This document shows, one piece after another, positions 3,234 to 52,321 of a stretch of 64,000 nt of DNA. The position numbers were made by a program, and so were the translations under genes. This stretch comes from Candidatus Falkowbacteria bacterium. GTDB lineage: Bacteria > Patescibacteriota > Patescibacteriia > Patescibacteriales > UBA12465. The first letter of the stretch is position 1; each line of letters starts with the position of its first letter. The notes under the pieces are model-generated. The model made no database searches, was not told the DNA's origin, and saw only the letters and a list, made by a program, of their open reading frames with translations. The DNA lies in the NCBI GenBank assembly GCA_037137655.1, contig JBAXJX010000001.1:289188-353187 (forward strand). Direction: 5' to 3'.

Positions 3234-5798
3234 ATGAATACAGACATTTCCCCAAATGTTTTAAGTGACGGCGTCCAGCAAGGTATTAATACCTATGCTA
3301 ATTTAAATACGGCTTATTTAGCTCTATTTATTGTCGCTATAATCGTTTTGGTTGTAATCTTTAGAAAAATCTTTACTTCAATTTCAATTCAAAACAGCAT
3401 GAATGATTATGCTGTTTTTTTAGTGCGTTTACCAAAGGAAAAGCCAAAAGATGACGGTGGTTCGAAAGATTTGTCAGTTCAACAAGTGCGTGAAGATATT
3501 TCTTTGGCGGAAACAATATTTGCCAGCATTGGTGGTATGCGACCGCAACATGGATTTATGCCGTGGCTTTTTGGTCGCAGTGACAATTTTTCTTTTGAAG
3601 TGGTGGCTCATGCCGGCAAGATTTCTTTTTATGTAGCCGCGCCAAAAGAATCAGCTCTATATTTAGAGCAACAAATCAACGCTTATTACCCTGAGGCGAG
3701 CGTGGAAGAAATTCCTGATTACAATGCCTTTAATCCACAAAATAGTATTGCGGCTGGCTCCTTGAAGCCGGTGCGTGGTTTTATGTTTCCTTTTAAAACT
3801 TATAATGATATGGAGTCGGATCCGATGAATTCACTGATTAATATCATCTCAAAAATGGAGCCACAAAATAGTATTAGTATTCAATATGTGGTTCGCTCCG
3901 CTGAAGGTGGTTGGCATAGTGTTGTAAAAAGAGCCGTACTTAATGCTTATAACAACAAGAGTGTGAGTGATATTTTTCACAGTGGCAACAACATGTTATC
4001 TGGTTTTGCTAGTTTTATAATTTATCATATTATTGGTGGTATATTTGGCGCAGTGGAGCCGAAGGACAAAAATAGCATGGAGAAAAAAGTTAATACTAAG
4101 GAGTTGACTGACAAGGAGAAAGAAATGTTGAAAAAAATGGAAGAGAAAAATTCTAAAGCTGGTTTGGATACCAATATCCGAATCGTGGTTAGTGCGACTA
4201 ATAAAATTCAAGCGAAGTCATATTTAGAAAATGTTGTAAACGCTTTTACTGAGTACAATTATTATACATATGGCAATAGTTTTAAAAAAGGTTTGGGATC
4301 GGCGCAACAAAATAAATTAATTAATCATTTTATTTATCGTCGTTTTATTCCAGAAAAAGGCTTTATTTTAAGTACGGAAGAATTGGCGAGTATGTATCAT
4401 TTTCCACTCCCACACACTGAAACGCCAAATATTGATTGGTTGTTATCTAAAACCGCACCAGCTCCAACTAATACTCCGCAAGAAGGAATTAATTTGGGTT
4501 ACAATTTGTTCCGCGGTCACAAAACTGATATTCGAATTAAACGCGTTGATCGTCGTCGTCATTGTTACATTGTTGGTAAATCTGGTACTGGTAAATCGGT
4601 CGAATTATTAAACATGGCGATTCAAGACATTGAAAATGGTGATGGTGTTTGCGTAATGGATCCAAACGGTGACTTGATTGAAGATATTTTAAATCGCATT
4701 CCACCACATCGTGCTGAGGATGTAATTGTCTTTTCTCCGGGTGATTTGGAGCGACCACTCGCTATGAATTTGTTGGAATATGATGAACGCTACCCAGAAC
4801 AAAAGAGCTTTGTGATTAATGAGGTGATTGGGATCTTTGATAAGTTGTATGATTTGAAGGCGACTGGTGGTCCGATTTTTGAACAATACATGCGCAATGC
4901 TTTGTTGTTAATTATGGATGATCCGGAATCCGGTTCGACCTTAATGGAAATTCCAAAAGTTTTGGCGGACGAAGATTTCCGTCGCATGAAATTATCACGT
5001 TGTAAAAATCCAACCGTGGTTGATTTTTGGCGCAAGGAAGCGGAGAAGGCGGGCGGAGAAGCGGCTCTAGCTAATATTGTGCCGTACATCACTTCGAAAT
5101 TAACTCCATTCGTGGCCAATGATATGATGCGTCCGATTATTGGGCAACAAAAAAGTTCCTTTAATATGCGCGACATAATGGATAACAAAAAAATCTTGAT
5201 GGTGGATTTGCCGAAGGGTTTAATTGGTGAAACTAATGCTTATCTTTTGGGTATGATTATTGTTGGTAAGATTTTAATGGCCGCTCTTAGTCGCACCGAT
5301 ATGCCAGCGGAAAAGCGGAATGATTTTTATTTATACATTGATGAGTTTCAAAACTTTACCACAAATTCGATTTGTCAGATTTTATCCGAAGCTCGAAAAT
5401 ATGCGTTGTGTTTAACCGTGGCCCATCAATATATTGGTCAGTTAAGCAAAGGTCAGGATGCTCAAATTAAAGATGCGATTTTTGGTAACGTTGGAACACT
5501 GATGAGCTTTAAAGTTGGTTCTGAAGATGCTGATTTCTTGGTAAAAGATTTTGGTCCAGTTTTCAATCAATTTGATTTAACTAATGTCGGTCGTGGTGGC
5601 TTTATGAAATTATTAGTTGATGGCAGCACCACTCGTCCTTTTTCCTTCCAAACTATTTGGCCCTTACTTGGTAATTACAATGAAGGTTTATCTCAAAAAA
5701 TTCGGGCTCTAAGTCGTTATAAATTCGGCCAAGATCGTCGTTTAATTGAAATGGAGATTGCGCGGCGCGCTAAAGCGACTGTTTCGACTGATTTTTAA
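3234..5798 (+). CDS. TraD/TraG/VirD4-like coupling-protein-type P-loop ATPase (FtsK/HerA superfamily), membrane anchored
   Basis: 854 aa. N-terminal TM (LALFIVAIIVLVVIF), Walker A GKSGTGKS, Walker B-like LYIDEFQNF, then CLTVAHQY. Confidence 0.8.
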   Translation: MNTDISPNVLSDGVQQGINTYANLNTAYLALFIVAIIVLVVIFRKIFTSISIQNSMNDYAVFLVRLPKEKPKDDGGSKDLSVQQVREDISLAETIFASIGGMRPQHGFMPWLFGRSDNFSFEVVAHAGKISFYVAAPKESALYLEQQINAYYPEASVEEIPDYNAFNPQNSIAAGSLKPVRGFMFPFKTYNDMESDPMNSLINIISKMEPQNSISIQYVVRSAEGGWHSVVKRAVLNAYNNKSVSDIFHSGNNMLSGFASFIIYHIIGGIFGAVEPKDKNSMEKKVNTKELTDKEKEMLKKMEEKNSKAGLDTNIRIVVSATNKIQAKSYLENVVNAFTEYNYYTYGNSFKKGLGSAQQNKLINHFIYRRFIPEKGFILSTEELASMYHFPLPHTETPNIDWLLSKTAPAPTNTPQEGINLGYNLFRGHKTDIRIKRVDRRRHCYIVGKSGTGKSVELLNMAIQDIENGDGVCVMDPNGDLIEDILNRIPPHRAEDVIVFSPGDLERPLAMNLLEYDERYPEQKSFVINEVIGIFDKLYDLKATGGPIFEQYMRNALLLIMDDPESGSTLMEIPKVLADEDFRRMKLSRCKNPTVVDFWRKEAEKAGGEAALANIVPYITSKLTPFVANDMMRPIIGQQKSSFNMRDIMDNKKILMVDLPKGLIGETNAYLLGMIIVGKILMAALSRTDMPAEKRNDFYLYIDEFQNFTTNSICQILSEARKYALCLTVAHQYIGQLSKGQDAQIKDAIFGNVGTLMSFKVGSEDADFLVKDFGPVFNQFDLTNVGRGGFMKLLVDGSTTRPFSFQTIWPLLGNYNEGLSQKIRALSRYKFGQDRRLIEMEIARRAKATVSTDF

Positions 5799-5820
5799 TT
5801 TTTATAATTTAAACAAAACT

Positions 5821-7305
5821 ATGAAAAAAGGTTTTAAGGTTCTATTATTTGTCGTTTTACTTGGTGTGCCATTTTTTGCTCTAAAAGCGGCTTCAACATC
5901 AAGCAGTGTAAAAGGGAAAATATTTCTTCAAGTTGAAGATAAAGGGCAGGCTTATTATGTCAGTCCAAAAGATGGACAGGCTTACTACATGGCTAATGGC
6001 AATGATGCTTTTAAAGTGATGCGAAGTATGGGTGTTGGTGTTAGTAATACCGACATGAATAAAATAAAAACTGATGCTAATTTCCGAAAGAAGTTTATGG
6101 GAAAAATACTTTTACAGGTTCAAGATAAGGGCCAAGCTTATTATATAAGTTTTGATGGTCGTTATAATTATCTTAAGGATGGCGCAGCTGCTTACGACGT
6201 CATGCGAAAATTAGGTGTTGGTATTAGTAATAATAATTTAAAAAATATTAAGGTTGTATCGGCGACTAACGCTAGTTTGGATGTGCGCGCTGATAAAAGC
6301 AATAACGTTGATAATGGAAATAGTGTTAGCACAAACGTTGCCACTAATACTACCGTTAAACCTGACGCTACTGCCAAGCCCAATACAATATCTAATAACC
6401 AACAAGCAGTTATAACGGAAAATGTTGGTCAAATAGATTATCAAAATCCAAATTATACTTGCGATGAAATTAATAATAATGACACTTGCACTTACAATGT
6501 TGTTAAAATTTGTGATAAAACTGGTAAACGTTGCCAACAATGGCTAAAGGAAAATCTTAATATCGGAAAATATACTGAAAGCAGAATGTCATCATCATCT
6601 GAATTTGCAAATTGCGTTAATATTGGAAATAGCGATGTGCCATCTTGGTCGTGTCAGATTGATTCTGGTTTGCAAAAATATTGTTACGGCAAGGTTGCTC
6701 AATCTGGCGGCTTAGAAAAAAATTGTCAAACTGATGGTGGCTTATACGAATGGTCTGAAGCTATGGGCTTGCCAGCTAAATGTAATAGAGCTTCTTATGA
6801 TAAAAATAGGGGGGCGAGTGATAGTTCTTGCACGCTGTCGTCGACCAGTAATATTCAAGGTATTTGTCCAAATGGTTTCCATATTCCAAATCGACAGGAA
6901 TTTGTGCAGCTAGCAAAAAATGTTATTAATGATCAATTCTGTGACCCACTTTACGGTGGTTGTAAACCAGCCGGTCATAAATTAAAAAAGAGAATGAATT
7001 TAATAGATTATACGGCCAATAGAACGTTGACAACTGGTAAAGGTTGTGATGCTTCAGTGCGTGAAGATGGTAGTGAAAAAGATGACTCCGATTGTGGTTC
7101 TAGTGGTTTTGAGGCCTTGTTTACTGGTATGAGAGACGATATTCAAGGGACGTTTGACGGTCGAGGTCAGGATACGATTTTTTGGACAGCAAATCCGATT
7201 GATAATGCTGCTTACTGCTTTGGTGTTGGTGACGGCAACTCAACCATTTCTCAAAATCTAATTGGTAAAACTAATGGTCTTTCCATTCGTTGTATAAAAG
7301 ATTAA
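5821..7305 (+). CDS. Secreted protein: two N-terminal ~55-aa repeats plus a Cys-rich FISUMP-type (TIGR02145-like) C-terminal domain
   Basis: 494 aa from ATG 5821 (the track start 5746 overlaps the previous gene). Signal MKKGFKVLLFVVLLGVPFFALKA. Repeats GKIFLQVEDKGQAYYVSP.../GKILLQVQDKGQAYYISF.... Motifs CQQWLKENLN, GGLYEWSEA, GICPNGFHIP, SGFEALFTG, LSIRCIKD. Confidence 0.8.
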   Translation: MKKGFKVLLFVVLLGVPFFALKAASTSSSVKGKIFLQVEDKGQAYYVSPKDGQAYYMANGNDAFKVMRSMGVGVSNTDMNKIKTDANFRKKFMGKILLQVQDKGQAYYISFDGRYNYLKDGAAAYDVMRKLGVGISNNNLKNIKVVSATNASLDVRADKSNNVDNGNSVSTNVATNTTVKPDATAKPNTISNNQQAVITENVGQIDYQNPNYTCDEINNNDTCTYNVVKICDKTGKRCQQWLKENLNIGKYTESRMSSSSEFANCVNIGNSDVPSWSCQIDSGLQKYCYGKVAQSGGLEKNCQTDGGLYEWSEAMGLPAKCNRASYDKNRGASDSSCTLSSTSNIQGICPNGFHIPNRQEFVQLAKNVINDQFCDPLYGGCKPAGHKLKKRMNLIDYTANRTLTTGKGCDASVREDGSEKDDSDCGSSGFEALFTGMRDDIQGTFDGRGQDTIFWTANPIDNAAYCFGVGDGNSTISQNLIGKTNGLSIRCIKD

Positions 7306-7424
7306 ATTTATTGCTAACTTTTTATAATTTAAAAAAATGAAACATAGTATAAAGCTATTATTAGTGATTATTTTGCCAGCATTATTTTTATCGGGGTGTA
7401 GCGCTGTTAACATTCAAACACAAA
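7274..7424 (+). repeat. Junction repeat copy A (gene 3' end + intergenic + lipoprotein signal peptide)
   Basis: 7274-7348 is identical (75 nt) to 8079-8153. Similarity continues, degraded, to about 7424/8229. Confidence 0.9.
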
Positions 7425-8110
7425 TAACTGCAAACAATGATAATTCCTCTGATTGTCCAAAAACTGTTAAATATGATGGTGGTGCTTATGATCAAGGTGG
7501 AGGAAATGGGATTTTTGGTGGTTATTATCGAACTGTTAAAATTGGAACTCAATGTTGGCTTAAGGATAATTTAAATGTTGGCACGATGATAAAAGGAACT
7601 ATTGATCAGTCTGACAATAAAATCATTGAGAAGTATTGTTATGATAACAATTCTGGCGGTTGCGATGCTAATGGTGGGCTATATCAATGGGATGAAGCTA
7701 TGCAATATTATGGCAGTAGTAGTGTTAATTTTGATAATAGTGGTAATCCGCTTAAAAATGTCCAGGGTATCTGTCCATCTGGTTGGCATATTCCGAATGA
7801 TGTTGACTGGAAAGCTATGATTAAATACTTAGGCGGTGATGATGTGGCTGGTGATAAATTAAAGGCAGCTTCAGTTTGGGGTGATAAGGCTAATAACTCT
7901 TCTGGATTTTCAGCTTTGCCAAGTGGTCAATTTTTTGGTGAACGAGGTTTTGTGGCGATGTATGGTAAGTTTTTTCTTCAAGGTTCTGGTGCTGTTTTTT
8001 GGTCATCATCATATAATTCCAGGTGGACTTTATTAAAAGATGATTCTAAATTTGATCTTGGCAACAAAATTAGCACTCATGGTCTTTCCATTCGTTGTAT
8101 AAAAGATTAA
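7337..8110 (+). CDS. Lipoprotein with FISUMP-type domain
   Basis: 257 aa. Lipobox LPALFLSG/C. Motifs CWLKDNLNVG, GGLYQWDEAM, GICPSGWHIPNDVDW, AGDKLKA, SGFSALPSG, FWSSS, LSIRCIKD. Confidence 0.85.
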   Translation: MKHSIKLLLVIILPALFLSGCSAVNIQTQITANNDNSSDCPKTVKYDGGAYDQGGGNGIFGGYYRTVKIGTQCWLKDNLNVGTMIKGTIDQSDNKIIEKYCYDNNSGGCDANGGLYQWDEAMQYYGSSSVNFDNSGNPLKNVQGICPSGWHIPNDVDWKAMIKYLGGDDVAGDKLKAASVWGDKANNSSGFSALPSGQFFGERGFVAMYGKFFLQGSGAVFWSSSYNSRWTLLKDDSKFDLGNKISTHGLSIRCIKD

Positions 8111-8229
8111 ATTTATTGCTAACTTTTTATAATTTAAAAAAATGAAACATAGTTTAAAAATATTACTAGGCATTATTTTGCCAGCATTATTTTTGTCGGG
8201 GTGTAGTGCTGTAAGCATACAAACACAAA
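8079..8229 (+). repeat. Junction repeat copy B
   Basis: Offset of 805 bp from copy A, with the same 75-nt identical core spanning the stop codon, the 31-nt spacer and the ATG. Confidence 0.9.
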
Positions 8230-8747
8230 CCATGGCCGATGGTGATGTTGCGCAAATTCCAGTTAAAAGTCAGACAGCTTCTTCTGATGAGCGTCAAGTT
8301 GATCAAGTATCTGTAAATGATAAGCAAAAAATTGTTCAAGATCGACCAGCTGGAGTTAACGTTCCCGCTAAGGCTGGTTTGAGTATTGATGGATTAAAAG
8401 TTGGTGATAGATACAATAGGGACTTTATGATTATTAAAATTTTGCCACTTGATAAAGCTAGACCGGTGGGTGATGATAATTTTGCAATTTCTTATGCTGG
8501 CATGACCTCTGTTACTGGTAATTATACTTGTGATCCTTCTGGTTTTTCAACCCTAATTCCGGATACTATGGAAGGGTTGCCAATTATATCTGGTAGTAAT
8601 TCTTATGATATTCTTTTCCCTAAAGCGCACTGCAATAAGTTTCCTAAAAATCATGCGACAATTACTTTTAAAGATTTTGTTTTGCAATCTGTTGGTGATG
8701 ATATTACAGCTTACTCTAATGAAATTTTAGTCGAGCTTTTTAAATAG
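8142..8747 (+). CDS. Lipoprotein, unknown function (paralog of ORF 23344-23877)
   Basis: 201 aa. Signal/lipobox nearly identical to the preceding gene. The mature domain shares VTGNY...PDTMxGLP...FPK...ATI...VLQS with ORF 23344-23877. Confidence 0.8.
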   Translation: MKHSLKILLGIILPALFLSGCSAVSIQTQTMADGDVAQIPVKSQTASSDERQVDQVSVNDKQKIVQDRPAGVNVPAKAGLSIDGLKVGDRYNRDFMIIKILPLDKARPVGDDNFAISYAGMTSVTGNYTCDPSGFSTLIPDTMEGLPIISGSNSYDILFPKAHCNKFPKNHATITFKDFVLQSVGDDITAYSNEILVELFK

Positions 8748-8826
8748 TCTTGCGTACTTAAAGAAGATCTGGTTTTCGTCTGGTCTTTTTTGTTAATTCC
8801 AATATTATCGCTTTGTTGTCAACGTC

Positions 8827-8855
8827 TTTTAAAAAGTATTTTTCTCCTGTATAAT
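8827..8855 (+). promoter_or_regulatory. Promoter of dnaX; -10 TATAAT lies 8 nt before the ATG (leaderless-type)
   Basis: tataat 8850-8855, preceded by tg; weak -35 ttttaa 8827-8832; ATG at 8864. Confidence 0.45.
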
Positions 8856-8863
8856 GTTCCTAT

Positions 8864-11819: not shown

Positions 11820-11843
11820 GTTAAAATAATCATCGTAAGCTTA

Positions 11844-12200
11844 CTTATGAAATACCGCACCTGAAGCGGGCGAAGCTTTCTTGGAAAATTTGAGCGTTAG
11901 CGAAATTTTTTCAAAAAGATTTGCACGCTTCACCCCACACAGTTAACGGCATTCTACCGAAGATTATTAAAAGCACCATTTTCTTTTTATATTAATAAAT
12001 AACCGTCTTCTCAGTCTTCGGTATCTCGGCTTGAATAAGCTAATCTATATAATTTCGCTTCGTCTTTCGACTTCGCTTTCTTCAACGCTTTTATCTTCTG
12101 GGGCGAATCTGGCAAAACTTTTGAAAAAAGATCTCACTAACGTTCGAACTTTTTTAAAAGTTTCGTCCAGCTTCGGATACGGTGGCTCGGTGAGGGCTTT
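11844..12200. repeat. Nested-hairpin intergenic element, copy 1 (MITE-like or structured RNA/ssDNA element)
   Basis: Two ~75-nt arms (11860-11937, 12099-12185) are inverted copies of each other, and each is a hairpin. Core 11860-12022 is the reverse complement of 51030-51192 (151/163 identical, ungapped, hand count). Confidence 0.85.
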
Positions 12201-12208
12201 TTACTTGA

Positions 12209-12237
12209 TTGACAAAACATTATTAAATTAGTAATAT
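12209..12237 (+). promoter_or_regulatory. Sigma70-type promoter TTGACA-N17-TAATAT
   Basis: ttgaca 12209-12214, taatat 12232-12237; upstream of the DUF488 gene. Confidence 0.65.
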
Positions 12238-12271
12238 TTTATATTCTTTAACAATTTAACAGCGTTGTATT

Positions 12272-32589: not shown

Positions 32590-32671
32590 ATTGACAAATA
32601 GCATTATTTATGATATAATAATTTACAGTTAAATAAATAGTAATCGAACATTAAAAATCATATAATCATGG
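32590..32671 (+). repeat. Duplicated promoter plus 48-nt leader, copy 1
   Basis: 66/82 ungapped identity with 33296-33377 (hand count), including TTGACA, the -10 and taatcgaacattaaaaat. Confidence 0.8.
32591..32619 (+). promoter_or_regulatory. Consensus sigma70 promoter TTGACA-N17-TATAAT
   Basis: ttgaca 32591-32596; tataat 32614-32619. Confidence 0.75.
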
Positions 32672-33240
32672 AAGTAAATGTAATTGGCAAAATTGTTCCA
32701 AGTGAATTATTTGCAAGCGCTCACGAAGACGAGGCTTTAGTTAATAGAAATGATCCTCGTAATAATTTTGTTCCGGTTGAGGATGTGGTTGGCAGTGATG
32801 AAAGCGATATCATTGAATATATTTCAACGCGTGAAAGACTTATGAATCGCCTTAAAAACAATACCAGAAATCGCGATCATAAAATAAATCGTAAAACCAG
32901 TTCAAATCTTGATTGCCAAATTATGGTAATGAGTAAAGATAGCGATGAAATTGGTGTTGAATGTCAACATTTTATTGGTGCAGCTTCAATTGTTAATGGT
33001 GAGGTTGTTTATTCAGAAAATATCGCCGTTGATATTAAAGAGGAACTTCGTGTTTACATGGCGCCAGAGAGAATTGGAATTAATAAATCTCATTGTAATG
33101 CAGGCAAACACTTAACCGATATAATTGGTTTAAAGCGTTTCTTTAAAAATTCTGACAAAGAAAACCTCAAGACAATGCCCATAGCCAAATTACAAAGATT
33201 ATCACGCGCTGAACTCCGTGAGTATCGTGGTAAATTCTAA
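32668..33240 (+). CDS. Hypothetical protein (paralog family with ORF 33374-33673)
   Basis: 190 aa. Has its own consensus promoter and terminator. Shares DIIEY and CxxFIGAAS blocks with the next ORF. Confidence 0.65.
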   Translation: MEVNVIGKIVPSELFASAHEDEALVNRNDPRNNFVPVEDVVGSDESDIIEYISTRERLMNRLKNNTRNRDHKINRKTSSNLDCQIMVMSKDSDEIGVECQHFIGAASIVNGEVVYSENIAVDIKEELRVYMAPERIGINKSHCNAGKHLTDIIGLKRFFKNSDKENLKTMPIAKLQRLSRAELREYRGKF

Positions 33241-33295: not shown

Positions 33296-33377
33296 ATTGA
33301 CAACACGCTATCTTCATGATACAATTATTTACAGTTAATTGAATTCTAATCGAACATTAAAAATTATATAGTTATGG
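33296..33377 (+). repeat. Duplicated promoter plus 48-nt leader, copy 2
   Basis: See copy 1; offset of 706 bp. Confidence 0.8.
33297..33325 (+). promoter_or_regulatory. Sigma70 promoter TTGACA-N17-TACAAT
   Basis: ttgaca 33297-33302; tacaat 33320-33325. Confidence 0.75.
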
Positions 33378-33673
33378 TAGCAAAGGAAAGCGATCTTCCC
33401 GAGGAAGATGAAGTGATAATTGTTCAAGATTATCCAAATAAAAAAAAGGTTTCAGCTGAAGAAGTGGTGGATGATAGTATTGATATTATTGAGTACGTCG
33501 AAGAGGCATTACAAATAAAAAGACTAAGACGCCTCCGTATCGAAAACTTAAAATCAAGAGGATTGGTATTACCAGAAACGGTTGAAGCTGATTGTTTTAT
33601 TGGCGCCGCTTCAGTCTTTTCAGATTTTATCGTAGTTCCAAAATGGAATGCAATCTGTAATCTGGCATTATAA
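33374..33673 (+). CDS. Hypothetical protein, short/truncated paralog of ORF 32668-33240
   Basis: 99 aa. SAEEVVDDSIDIIEYV and ADCFIGAASVF align with the 190-aa paralog. It diverges and stops soon after the FIGAAS block, so it may be a decaying copy. Confidence 0.45.
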   Translation: MVAKESDLPEEDEVIIVQDYPNKKKVSAEEVVDDSIDIIEYVEEALQIKRLRRLRIENLKSRGLVLPETVEADCFIGAASVFSDFIVVPKWNAICNLAL

Positions 33674-34728: not shown

Positions 34729-35136
34729 TTATTTAGTAGAAGTGGCGTTGGTAGCTGGAGTTGGTGTTGGTGCTACAACTTGGCTATTAGCTGGGATGTA
34801 GTTACGATTCATCATTTGGCGACCGCCGAAGTTTTTTTCAAAATTTCCTTCATTGTGATTATTTCTGGCACCCATGTGAAATCCGATTGAGAAGATGGCG
34901 ACAATGATAGCTATTTTTACTAAAATTTTTAAAGCACCACCGTGACAACAACATTTAGATTTCGCACTTGAACAACAATCTTTTTCACTTGAACAACATG
35001 ATTTTTCTTCAGAACAACAATCTTTTTCACTTGAACAACATGATTTTTCTTCAGAACAACAATCTTTTTCACTGCTCATTTCTTTGTCGTCATGTGAACA
35101 ACAAGTGTGTTCATTTTTGTCTTTTTGTTCTTCCAT
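34729..35136 (-). CDS. Cys-Cys heptad-repeat membrane protein (putative metal/thiol-binding)
   Basis: 135 aa. N-terminal cytoplasmic tract with seven vicinal-Cys clusters in (E/S)EK(D/S)CCS(E/S) heptads, one TM (ILVKIAIIVAIFSIGF), and a short Pro/Thr-rich tail. Confidence 0.75.
   Translation of the reverse strand: MEEQKDKNEHTCCSHDDKEMSSEKDCCSEEKSCCSSEKDCCSEEKSCCSSEKDCCSSAKSKCCCHGGALKILVKIAIIVAIFSIGFHMGARNNHNEGNFEKNFGGRQMMNRNYIPANSQVVAPTPTPATNATSTK
34965..35074 (-). repeat. In-frame 21/42-bp tandem repeat inside the Cys-rich gene
   Basis: The 42-bp unit cacttgaacaacatgatttttcttcagaacaacaatcttttt is repeated exactly twice (34986-35069) and preceded by a 21-bp half unit. Encodes the CC heptads. 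Confidence 0.9.
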
Positions 35137-49461: not shown

Positions 49462-50565
49462 ATGAATCCACTTTTAATCATGTCGCTAGTGGTAATTATT
49501 GTGGTGTTTGGTGGCCATTTATTTTTGTGGTCTACCTTGGTTAAATTTTATGCCATAGAAAGCTTGTATTGGCGCTATGGTTTATTGGCCGTTATTATTG
49601 TTTTGCTTTTAATTTTAGCGGCAGCCTTATGGTTGAAATTGCCTAACAATAATTTTTGGACCAATTTTCATGTGGGGGCTTTTTGGTGGATTGGTATTTT
49701 AGCCAATTTACTTATTTTCTCAACCTTAACTTGGATAATTTGGTTTAGTGCTAGTCGACTTAATTGTCCAGTAAATAGCCCGATTTTAATTAGTGTGATG
49801 CTGGGCTTAAGTCTACTTATTTCGATTATTGGGCTGATTAATGCTGCTCATCCGGCAATTGTAAATTTAGATCTAAGTTTGCCAAATTTACCGGAAGCCT
49901 GGAAGGGTAAAAAAATTGTACAGCTATCTGACATGCATTATGGCGCGATTAATAATGATGATTATCTGCAAAAAATTACTAATATTGTTAATGGTTTGCA
50001 CCCCGATTTAATCGTGTATACTGGCGATTTATTTGATGGTACTGGTGGGGCTGGTCCGAATTTTGCCAGCATTATAAATCAAATGAAGGCGACCAGTGGC
50101 TCGTATTTTGTTTTTGGCAATCATGAAACTTATTTTGGGATGGATGAGGTGAATAAACTTTTGGCCGAAACCAATCTTAAAGTTTTGCGCGACCAAAAAG
50201 TTGATCTTAATGGTTTGCAACTCGTCGGACTCGATGGCTGGAACTTTAACGGTCGCAGCGACTTAGCTCAAGTTTTTACTAAAATTAATCTCGATAAAAA
50301 TAAACCAAGTATCTTGCTGTATCATATTCCAGCGAATGTGCCAGAAATTAAAGCAGCCGGCATTAATTTGTGGTTAGCGGGGCACACGCACCGCGGTCAA
50401 CTTTGGCCCTTTAATTGGTTGGTTACTTTAATTTATAAGGGCTATGGTCATGGTTTATTTCAAGATAAAAACTTCATAACTTATGTTAGTGCTGGTGTCG
50501 GTACTTGGGGTCCACCAATGCGCACCTCCGGTCGCCCTGAGATTGTGGTGGTGAATTTGAAATAA
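49462..50565 (+). CDS. Membrane-anchored metallophosphoesterase (YkuE/YaeI-like)
   Basis: 367 aa. About 4 N-terminal TM helices, then LSDMHYG, GDLFDG, GNHE, GHTHRGQ. Confidence 0.85.
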   Translation: MNPLLIMSLVVIIVVFGGHLFLWSTLVKFYAIESLYWRYGLLAVIIVLLLILAAALWLKLPNNNFWTNFHVGAFWWIGILANLLIFSTLTWIIWFSASRLNCPVNSPILISVMLGLSLLISIIGLINAAHPAIVNLDLSLPNLPEAWKGKKIVQLSDMHYGAINNDDYLQKITNIVNGLHPDLIVYTGDLFDGTGGAGPNFASIINQMKATSGSYFVFGNHETYFGMDEVNKLLAETNLKVLRDQKVDLNGLQLVGLDGWNFNGRSDLAQVFTKINLDKNKPSILLYHIPANVPEIKAAGINLWLAGHTHRGQLWPFNWLVTLIYKGYGHGLFQDKNFITYVSAGVGTWGPPMRTSGRPEIVVVNLK

Positions 50566-50568
50566 TTT

Positions 50569-50808
50569 ATGTACCACCTCTACATCCTCCAATGTGCTGA
50601 TAAAAGTTTGTATACTGGCATCACGGTTGATTTGGTGCGGCGAGTAAGGGAACATAATAGTTCGAAGCTCGGCGCGAAGTACACTAAAATGCGGCGGCCG
50701 GTGCAATTGGTTTACAGTGAAGAATTTGCTGATCGCAGCGCGGCGAGCAAGGCGGAATACGAGATGAAGCAATTGACGCGGGAGCAGAAATTAAAATTGA
50801 TAAAATAG
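50569..50808 (+). CDS. GIY-YIG nuclease-family protein (UPF0213/YhbQ-like)
   Basis: 79 aa. YILQCADKSLYTGITVDLVRRVREHN...GAKYTKMRRPVQLVYSEEF. Confidence 0.88.
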   Translation: MYHLYILQCADKSLYTGITVDLVRRVREHNSSKLGAKYTKMRRPVQLVYSEEFADRSAASKAEYEMKQLTREQKLKLIK

Positions 50809-50814
50809 AATTTT

Positions 50815-50848
50815 AAAAGAGAAGTTGGAAACGACTTCTTTTTTTTAT
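50815..50848 (+). terminator. Rho-independent terminator
   Basis: agaagt tggaaacg acttct followed by tttttttt. Confidence 0.75.
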
Positions 50849-50867
50849 TTCACCTCGCCTAAAGCCT

Positions 50868-51205
50868 CTTATGAAACATTGCATCTGAAGCGAGTCGAGA
50901 CTTTTTACGGGAAATGTAGCCGCTAGGCGAATTTCGCGGAAAAAGGGCTCGATCGATTCGCCCAAGCGTAAAAAAGCTATTAAGTAAACGGAGTGAAATT
51001 ATATAGATTAGACTATTAAAATTGACGTGACCGAAGACTGAAAAAACGGTTATTTATTAATATAAAAAGAAAATAGCGCTTTTAATAATCTCCGGTAGAA
51101 TACCGTTAATTATGTGGGGCGAAGCGTGCAAATCTTTTTGAAAAGATTTCGCTAACGCTCAACCTTTCCAAGAAAGCTTCGCCCGCTTCAGGTACGGCAT
51201 TTTAG
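50868..51205. repeat. Nested-hairpin intergenic element, copy 2 (core inverted relative to copy 1)
   Basis: 51030-51192 is the reverse complement of 11860-12022 (151/163). The remainder is diverged but keeps the same hairpin skeleton. Confidence 0.85.
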
Positions 51206-51226
51206 GGAAGGCCACTGTTTAAAAAC

Positions 51227-51255
51227 TTGACATAAATCAAAAACTATGATAAAAA
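51227..51255 (+). promoter_or_regulatory. Promoter TTGACA-N17(TGa)-TAAAAA
   Basis: ttgaca 51227-51232; tga+taaaaa 51247-51255. Confidence 0.5.
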
Positions 51256-51302
51256 ATAGGTAATTAAATTTTCGAACATTCACAATTTAAATTATAGAAA
51301 TA

Positions 51303-51674
51303 ATGAAAAAGAAAAGTTTTTTATTGCTCACCGGCGCACTTATGATTGTCGCCTTTATTTGTTATCTAAGTGGTTATCATACAACCATTGTAATACGTCT
51401 AACTTTGAGTTTGCTTATCGGTCTGATAGCTGGTTTAATAGCAAATTTTTTTACCAGTGTTAGTGTGGTAGATTTGGTTGAACACGATAATCCGCTTAAA
51501 ATTGGAAAAATGCTTTTAGTTGGAATTATCGTTGGTGCGATCATGGCTCTTATTAATTATGGTTTTTATCACCAAGAATCTTTCGTTCTTTTTATCGGCT
51601 CGGTAATTGGCACTTTAATTAGCTGCTCTTACAAACAAGAAGACGATGACGAAGAAAAAGGTGGAAATATATAG
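51303..51674 (+). CDS. Small integral membrane protein, unknown function
   Basis: 123 aa, four TM helices, acidic C-terminal tail (QEDDDEEKGG). Confidence 0.65.
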   Translation: MKKKSFLLLTGALMIVAFICYLSGYHTTIVIRLTLSLLIGLIAGLIANFFTSVSVVDLVEHDNPLKIGKMLLVGIIVGAIMALINYGFYHQESFVLFIGSVIGTLISCSYKQEDDDEEKGGNI

Positions 51675-51688
51675 AATTTTTTCTCTCT

Positions 51689-51722
51689 AAGCCATATTAC
51701 ATTTTGTAGTGTGGCTTTTTTA
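51689..51722 (+). terminator. Rho-independent terminator
   Basis: aagccatattac atttt gtagtgtggctt (two G.U) followed by a T-run. Confidence 0.7.
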
Positions 51723-51752
51723 TTTGTCCAGTTTAATTTTAATTTAGCTTCA

Positions 51753-51761
51753 TGCTATAAT
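51753..51761 (+). promoter_or_regulatory. Extended -10 TGcTATAAT, 8 nt before the ATG (leaderless-type)
   Basis: tgctataat 51753-51761; ATG at 51770. Confidence 0.55.
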
Positions 51762-51769
51762 ATTAAAAC

Positions 51770-52321
51770 ATGAATAGTGAAGAGCAAAAACTTATCACTG
51801 ATTATTTTTCTGGGGATACCAAATCTCTGGATTTATTGATTGCTAAATATTTAGACGTCGTTTATCGTCTCGTTTTTTGCTATGTGAAAAATGCGGCGGA
51901 TGCTGATGATTTAACCCAAGAAGTTTTTGTAAAAGTTTGGCAGCACCTCAAGAGCTTTGACCAAGCTAAGAGTTTTAAAAATTGGGTGCTAGCGATTGCT
52001 AAAAATACAGCTCTGGATTTTTTGCGGAAGAAAAAAGATTTACCGCTTGCCACCTTTAATGATGAATATGTTGATAATCTTTTAAACACTCTAATTAGCG
52101 CCGAAATTGCGCCGGGTGATTTGCTGGATTTTAATGCGCAAGTTGATACTGTTAAACAGATTCTAGAAGCCAAATCCAGTGATTACTGGAAAATATTTAG
52201 TTTACATAATTTTGGCGGTTTTAATTTTCGCCAAATTGCCTTAAAGACCGGAAAGCCGCTTAATACCATAAAAAGCCAATATCGGCGGGCTTTATTGTTG
52301 ATCAAAAATCAGACGCGCTAG
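51770..52321 (+). CDS. ECF-type RNA polymerase sigma factor (sigma-70 family, group 4)
   Basis: 183 aa. Region 2 DADDLTQEVFVKVWQHLKSF...FKNWVLAIAKNTALDFLRKKK. Region 4 helix-turn-helix near the C-terminus. Confidence 0.9.
   Translation: MNSEEQKLITDYFSGDTKSLDLLIAKYLDVVYRLVFCYVKNAADADDLTQEVFVKVWQHLKSFDQAKSFKNWVLAIAKNTALDFLRKKKDLPLATFNDEYVDNLLNTLISAEIAPGDLLDFNAQVDTVKQILEAKSSDYWKIFSLHNFGGFNFRQIALKTGKPLNTIKSQYRRALLLIKNQTR

Follow-up and report, generated by a model that had tools for sequence, protein, structure and literature searches.

We found that a window of 64,000 nt, the whole stretch of DNA that was analysed, carries two mutually inverted copies of a noncoding repeat of about 370 nt built from palindromes nested at several levels. 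The repeat, its anatomy, the covariation of its hairpins, and its presence/absence polymorphism among relatives were all observed directly. We read it, with a probability of about 0.55, as belonging to a small family of nonautonomous, nested-palindromic, MITE/REPIN-like repeats that land just after terminators. The family is real and well structured, it resides in the genome of an uncultivated CPR bacterium of the Falkowbacteria, and it appears to be undescribed.

Anatomy of the repeat

Each copy is made up of two hairpin modules of about 77 nt, mutually inverted, which flank an AT-rich core of about 160 nt (Table 1). Short outer terminal inverted repeats are followed by an AT-rich box (CTTATRAAA) 8 nt outside the module, then by the module itself, the core, and the inverted module. 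A module opens at its outer end with CYGAAGC, continues as a long, imperfect stem that turns at a tetraloop (TTAG or GCTA) and runs back, and closes at its inner end with RTTCGCCCC. A gapped module pattern matched twice, with 0 matches expected in shuffles, and all four long modules (two per copy, named L and R) scored 61 to 95 bits against one covariance model. Over 94 nt, module 1R matches the reverse complement of 2L at 73% identity. The box CTTATGAAA, followed by 8 nt and CTGAAGC, stands on the plus strand at 11844 and 50868, and its counterpart at position 3829 of locus L099, in a relative described below, is CTTATAAAA. As terminal inverted repeats, we found the modules themselves and an outer 22-nt repeat in the short form of the element at L099. 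The copy 1 stretch at 12178 to 12202 is 91% identical to the right end of that short form. No ORF was longer than 66 aa and none was common to both copies, so a coding region was rejected.

Table 1 Features of the two copies and their surroundings, with positions in the window
Feature	Position	Strand	Basis
Copy 2, whole unit	about 50852..51217	− (orientation collinear with copy 1)	Global alignment score 341; BLAST
Module 2L: CCTGAAGCG, long imperfect stem, TTAG loop, CGCTTCGCCCCA	51115..51192	−	Pattern match; covariance model, 95.2 bits
Second conserved hairpin P2, start of core, CCGGAGA...TCTTCGG	51030..51096	−	Predicted in both copies (copy 1: 11956-12022)
AT-rich core between modules, copy 2	50964..51114	−	2L-side half 92% identical to copy 1; other half diverged, with a 13-nt indel
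Module 2R: CTGAAGCG, diverged stem, GCTA loop, CGATTCGCCC	50885..50963	+ (outer to inner)	Covariance model, 61.2 bits
Box CTTATGAAA, 8 nt outside CTGAAGC, resembling a −10 hexamer	50868..50876	+	Read from sequence; collinear with those of copy 1 and L099
Degenerate box and 8-nt spacer at the other end: CCCTAAAA TGCCGTAC, then CTGAAGC	51193..51208	−	Sequence; alignment of ends
Copy 1, whole unit	about 11831..12202	+	Insertion of ~380 nt in three-way alignment with L014 and L012
Module 1L	11861..11937	+	Pattern match; folding; covariance model, 95.4 bits
Module 1R, inverted repeat of 1L	12100..12176	−	Covariance model, 81.3 bits
Outer terminal repeat of copy 1, TACGGTGGCTCGGTGAGGGCT and T run, resembling a weak terminator	12178..12202	+	Terminator-like flag at 12184-12198
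Bidirectional intrinsic terminator of the GIY-YIG gene, adjoining copy 2 on the left	50815..50848	+	Terminator scan (50815-50844)
Promoter-like site TTGACA, 17 nt, TAAAAA, before the gene of the 123-aa membrane protein, adjoining copy 2 on the right	51227..51255	+	Read from sequence

The long form folds in two ways, either as one end-to-end hairpin (the minimum-free-energy [MFE] structure of copy 1, −106 kcal/mol, z = −6.0) or as local hairpins (copy 2). Folding energies of the whole element are equal on both strands, and the strand preferred for folding is opposite in the L and R modules. The MFE of module 2L is −32.7 kcal/mol on the minus strand and −24.6 kcal/mol on the complement.

The two copies are inverted over their whole length

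The segment from 51030 to 51192 is the ungapped reverse complement of that from 11860 to 12022, with 151 of 163 positions matching; this identity, reported in an earlier sequence-only reading of the window, was reproduced together with its 12 substitutions, 11 of which are transitions. A repeat search of the window gave inverted arms of 173 nt at 92% identity (11850-12022 and 51030-51202), and BLAST aligned the two copies at 85.5% over 242 nt. The left halves of the copies, about 175 nt, are 92% identical, whereas the right halves show roughly half that identity, with indels. The lower identity of the second half had also been noted and was seen again here, with that half being collinear in the same inverted orientation and holding an island of 85% identity (12031-12063 and 50988-51020).

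When 11830-12215 was aligned globally with the reverse complement of 50850-51225, the two regions proved collinear end to end, with a score of 341, compared with 87 in direct orientation. The entire element is therefore inverted between the copies, not just its core, which bears out the view that the region is a second, inverted copy of an element at 11.8 to 12.2 kb. The sequence-only reading had gone further and hinted that the core can flip or recombine within the arms, because CTTATGAAA stands 8 nt outside CTGAAGC at the plus-strand left end of both copies. These boxes are indeed present, but core flipping is not needed to account for them: the bilateral symmetry of the element, with a box at either end of copy 2, is the simpler explanation. 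The mosaic identity of the copies is real, and since one half has diverged so much more than the other (92% versus roughly half), some additional recombination or partial replacement took place. A template/variable pair of a diversity-generating retroelement was considered and rejected, as the nearly exclusive transitions are not adenine-specific and no reverse transcriptase was identified among the window proteins.

Independent assemblies (ENA and Logan) are 100% identical across copy 1, and all those that could be read have the same orientation. The Logan short-read contigs start or stop within the hairpin modules near the loops (window position 12136; L101:3094), which suggests either that repeats and palindromes break assemblies or that the samples are heterogeneous there. 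ENA contigs of the same genome also break at 5803-8860, a segment missing from locus L012 of a relative that contains tandem paralogues with Fib_succ_major domains and a 155-nt direct repeat of 92% identity (7270-7424 and 8075-8229).

The fold is conserved through compensatory changes

In copy 2, the pair 11888:11907 changes from A-T to G-C. This pair lies within the predicted helix of the L module (alignment columns 36/55), confirming an earlier statement that the double substitution keeps the hairpin. At 11889/11906, T.T becomes G.T, and the stem is lengthened there; in P2, an A-to-G substitution at 11960 turns A-U into G.U. Conservation of the fold also held with further modules. We aligned five modules for covariation, namely, 1L, 2L, 1R, 2R, and the short form from the relative, and found 86% of the cells to be paired. 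Nine pairs were changed on both sides, compared with 2.9 ± 1.2 in 500 shuffles, none of which reached this number (0/500), and with 0 to 3 when the partners were slid by 1 to 3 columns. Modules 1R and 2R are only about half identical, yet 7 to 8 of their pairs are compensated.

The arms of 163 nt were also compared with the predicted structures. When the 12 substitutions were placed on the MFE structure of the copy 1 top strand, every pair stayed intact (P = 0.014; 1.4% of random sets of the same kind match this), whereas the same test was not significant with copy 2 as the reference or with the bottom strand (P = 0.23 to 0.97). The 163-nt arm alone is for this reason weak evidence for the fold, whereas the comparison of the modules is strong evidence.

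Empty sites and short forms in relatives

Two relatives were available for comparison: relative A, with a SerRS 95% identical to that of the window (loci L014, L099, L100, and L106, the last of which is identical to L099), and relative B, with a SerRS 87% identical (loci L012 and L067). The SerRS site is empty in both (L014 and L012), where the terminator is followed, within about 10 nt, by the promoter TTGACAAAAC..TTAAATTAGTAA. In a three-way alignment with these loci, the window shows a clean insertion of about 380 nt between the terminator and the shared promoter. Since both relatives are empty at this site, the parsimonious reading of the alignment is that copy 1 was inserted in the lineage of the window.

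At the GIY-YIG site, relative A has a short form of the element (L099:3799-3944, plus orientation), which is a single end-to-end palindrome. It consists of the 22-nt outer repeat, in which AGCCCTCATCGAAACTACTGTA pairs with TACGGTAGGCTCGGTGACGGCT at 17/22 positions, the box, and one hairpin, in which the left arm and loop of an L-type module are joined to the right end of an R-type module. The short form may have arisen by a deletion between the direct repeats TTTTCAAAAAG and TTTTTTAAAAG of the long form. The module in the window is inverted relative to this orthologous short form. Both flanks of the short form carry TTTTTTATT; as to candidate target-site duplications, this 9-nt sequence in L099 and TTTTT at copy 1 were found, with none convincing at copy 2, and the T runs of the terminators confound such comparisons. 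The short form shares 86% identity with 2L and 81% with 1L, compared with 92% between 1L and 2L, from which it would follow that 1L and 2L separated after the split from relative A; this fits a duplication after that split.

Relative B has a degenerate mini form (L012:11765-11838), also between a terminator and a promoter, with a hairpin that matches the inner part of 2R (AAAGGGCTCGATCG, at L012:11806-11838). In a more distant relative (L104:1955-1973, compared with 50565-51770 of the window), the metallophosphoesterase gene is directly followed by the sigma-70 gene, and both the GIY-YIG gene and the element are absent.

Genomic context of the loci

The element was found between an intrinsic terminator and the next promoter at four of four loci (copies 1 and 2, L099, and L012), and the position proposed earlier, after a terminator and before a promoter, is thus a recurrent one. 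For copy 2, the terminator was recovered by the scan, but the promoter, which has a perfect −35, was read from the sequence and is absent from the promoter scan list because its −10 lacks the final T. An association with GIY-YIG genes, also raised earlier as a point to check, is not supported and holds at one site only, as copy 1 and the mini form of L012 are not adjacent to such a gene. The terminator scan flagged a stem of 5 pairs with a T run only at 12184-12198, and not in L099 or copy 2. A riboswitch or leader was rejected as a candidate, as the element precedes the promoter and is oriented differently in the two copies.

The surroundings of both copies vary in gene content. Next to copy 2, the stretch from 51227 to 51725, with its promoter and the 123-aa membrane-protein gene (weak Bax1-I match), is present only in the window. 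The variable stretch by copy 2 is bracketed by TTTTTTATTT at 50841-50850 and 51716-51725, and the brackets of its L099 counterpart are TTTTTTATT. At the SerRS site, the three genomes have a common promoter and leader, TTGACAAAAC..TTAAATTAGTAA..TATATTCTTTAACAATT, behind the SerRS terminator (12209-12262 in the window, L012:11336-11390, and L014:2510-2560). The gene that comes next differs: the window has DUF488, L012 a gene for a 104-aa protein, and L014 one for a 100-aa Anti-TRAP-like protein, so that synteny breaks just past the promoter.

Other repeats were seen in the window. A tandem repeat of five 21-nt units (34949-35074) lies in a minus-strand ORF of 135 aa that has no Pfam match, and the promoter/leader regions of neighboring small genes at 32590-32683 and 33296-33389 are 79% identical. 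The motif TCGAACATT is common to the leaders of several small genes, including 51270-51290.

Searches for further copies, enzymes, and families

Altogether, the family was found at four loci in three genomes, with two copies in 74 kb of the window genome. The 10 kb upstream of the window contained no copy, and the covariance model of the module detected no further copy over 126 kb comprising the window, its upstream flank, and the relatives. In the genome-contig collection, the 20-mer CTGAAGCGGGCGAAGCTTTC gave 8 matches, all by chance, including one in Saccharibacteria that lies inside an AspRS gene; the last base of this pattern (C, which is A in the short form) excludes short forms. In metagenome contigs, CCTGAAGCG..CGCTTCRCCCCA gave 84 matches, all of them by chance in GC-rich contigs except that in L067, which is the mini form of L012 again; the L053 match was inspected and found to be unrelated. 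This pattern cannot fit the short form either, and the family may be wider than found, since both large-scan patterns miss that form. Patterns that would fit it are CTGAAGCGGGCGAAGCTTT without the last base, or TTTCGNCCAGCTTCGGATACGG. The collection scans returned nothing that could be regarded as a longer relative of the element.

Three pattern scans of viral contigs gave 0, 7, and 0 matches, the 7 being chance matches to one homologous phage gene, and blastn against plasmids and phages gave no match. Rfam listed no family at either locus: its sole match at gathering score in the window was a tRNA, and the best matches by E value at the two loci were hairpin-type noise, well below gathering scores. 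Among the approximately 45 proteins encoded in the window, Pfam identified no transposase, integrase, reverse transcriptase, or RAYT. Our literature searches turned up no account of MITE- or REP-type repeats from CPR bacteria.

Discussion

We propose that the family is a small nonautonomous mobile element of the MITE/REPIN type, without a gene of its own. An enzyme whose gene lies elsewhere would copy the element into further intergenic sites; the element would land in the T-rich spacer just behind intrinsic terminators and would decay through internal deletions to short and mini forms. Compensatory changes would preserve its hairpins, since what counts is the fold of a single strand, either single-stranded DNA (ssDNA) during mobilization or a transcript. 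Here, we infer transposition as the copying mechanism, as well as the identity of the enzyme and the target preference. Several observations count against this reading. The numbers of copies and loci do not show a high copy number, there is no clear target-site duplication, the approximately 45 window proteins include no transposase, integrase, or reverse transcriptase, no autonomous parent was found, and simple duplicative transposition leaves the very unequal divergence of the two halves unexplained.

A transcribed RNA gene would account equally well for the box and the strand-biased folding, and given a promoter-like box upstream and this folding bias, the element may be transcribed. The main rival reading, which we regard as possible, is accordingly a family of small structured RNA genes, in which the box would be the −10 of an inward promoter, the transcript would start at the foot of the module, and its end would be formed by a weak GC hairpin and T run (copy 1 and L099) or by the bidirectional terminator of the GIY-YIG gene (copy 2). 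A mobile origin would not conflict with this reading. In L099, a promoter-like site (TCGAAA-17-TAAAAT) points into the hairpin, but in both window copies the −35 part is deleted and no promoter was called there by the scan. With RNA parameters, the short form reaches −63.4 kcal/mol (z = −7.0) on the promoter-directed strand, compared with −43.2 kcal/mol (z = −2.75) on the other, and the gap is much smaller with DNA parameters (−27.8 versus −22.5). However, whole-element energies do not differ between the strands, and the L and R modules favor opposite strands, so that a single transcript cannot carry both favored folds. The outer-to-inner strands show a 15-to-5 excess of G.T over A.C, counts that are few and nonindependent and that amount to 7 versus 2 in the short form alone (P = 0.09). 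The terminator-like site at 12184-12198 and the 12 substitutions that leave every top-strand pair of copy 1 intact (P = 0.014) also speak for an RNA gene, whereas the lack of an Rfam match and a nonsyntenic locus, absent at the SerRS site of the relatives and inverted at the GIY-YIG site, speak against it.

The recurrent position at gene boundaries could alternatively mean that the element is a cis-acting DNA or RNA module, such as an extra terminator or insulator resembling the pneumococcal SPRITE or a 3′ stabilizer of read-through transcripts, that has spread by duplication. This is unlikely. SPRITE is listed as a terminator-like repeat (PMC3184786), and copy 1 and L099 end in a GC hairpin with a T run, but the main hairpins lack the T run that directly follows the GC-rich stem of an intrinsic terminator, the small 3′ hairpin is limited to 3 to 5 pairs, is unflagged in L099, and is missing from copy 2, and the relatives manage without the element at the SerRS site. 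We consider it highly improbable that the element is an invertible or recombining segment, or an attC-like site of cassette recombination that marks variable genes. The mosaic identity of the copies, the inversion of the GIY-YIG-site module relative to its orthologous short form, and the difference among relatives in the genes beside both copies (DUF488 after SerRS and the 123-aa gene confined to the window) would agree with such a segment. However, the whole-length inverted alignment and the bilateral symmetry account for the shared flanks, the window encodes no recombinase or integrase, the base motif CTGAAGC/GCTTCRG does not fit the R boxes of attC, synteny at the SerRS site breaks after the shared promoter rather than at the element, and the readable independent assemblies all have one orientation. 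Chance similarity or an assembly artifact is scarcely credible: nothing but the breakage of short-read contigs inside the hairpins points that way, and it is contradicted by 173 nt at 92% identity, by the same sequence in the independent ENA and Logan assemblies, and by related forms in two other genomes.

Beyond the MITE/REPIN-like reading that we prefer, it is conceivable, although rather doubtful, that the modules are substrates of a hairpin-reading, single-strand mobilization system of CPR bacteria, similar to REPIN/RAYT but with larger hairpins, or that the unit is a mobile small-RNA gene with its own promoter box and terminator. Either of these, if true, would make it the first repeat system of its kind reported from the reduced Patescibacteria genomes. 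If, on the other hand, the family is only a low-copy MITE, it is an ordinary one. CPR/Patescibacteria genomes are about 1 Mb in size, and a family of structured repeats that is gained, shortened, and inverted between close relatives shows that small selfish or regulatory DNA persists in them. Hot spots of gene-content change are marked by the occupied sites, and the natural covariation of the hairpins provides material to distinguish a fold acting in RNA from one acting in ssDNA. On the practical side, the hairpins break short-read assemblies.

Among the known systems with which the element can be compared, the attC sites of integrons have R boxes of the form RYYYAAC/GTTRRRY. The hairpin feet of the element are CYGAAGC ... 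GCTTCRG instead, and no integrase is encoded in the window. The ends of IS200/IS605-type elements, which are ssDNA substrates of HUH enzymes (PMC6006769), resemble the element in having subterminal imperfect hairpins that are strand-biased and conserved in fold rather than in sequence. However, no TnpA, TnpB, or IscB gene accompanies the element, and the two end hairpins of these insertion sequences lie on the same strand, whereas the two modules of the element favor opposite strands.

The likeness to MITEs is closer. Bacterial MITEs, such as Correia/CREE, ERIC, RUP, and Nezha, have been defined (PMC3184786, PMC11602168), and their terminal inverted repeats are at least 10 to 15 bp long (PMC11602168). 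We compared the element with them by a size of 50 to 800 bp, the lack of a transposase gene, a target-site duplication of 2 to 10 bp, dispersed copies, and empty/occupied sites. The element has terminal inverted repeats, lacks a transposase gene within its ~370 nt, falls within the size range, is intergenic, and has an empty/occupied site at SerRS (L014 and L012). Like MITEs, it also forms stem-loops that are long and stable, occurs in longer and shorter versions distinguished by internal indels, is present or absent among close relatives, and may carry a promoter- or terminator-like motif. It differs from them in that it has no clear target-site duplication or known parent insertion sequence, its inverted repeats are themselves long hairpins, and its copy number appears to be low.

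REPINs and BIMEs are doublets of hairpin-forming REPs that are mobilized by RAYT transposases (PMC3116915, PMC3337134). RAYTs are Y1 HUH transposases, and their genes usually have REPs on their flanks. A single REP is a unit of about 20 to 40 nt in tens to hundreds of copies, unlike the four long modules of ~77 nt that we found in 74 kb, with none elsewhere in 126 kb. The element likewise differs from REPINs in having modules of ~77 nt rather than ~20 to 40 nt, a spacer of ~160 nt rather than tens of nucleotides, a handful of copies rather than hundreds, no RAYT gene in the window, no GTAG-type motif, and a CPR bacterium as its host. A REPIN consists of two inverted hairpin-forming repeats with a spacer, adopts the same two folds, and commonly shows compensatory changes in its hairpins (PMC3116915). 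The element is likewise extragenic and exists as singlets or short remnants, it has a conserved motif at the hairpin foot, and it can adopt a long hairpin or a "clover" of local hairpins. Like a REPIN, it is built of two inverted hairpin repeats around a spacer, with the hairpins kept up by compensatory changes.
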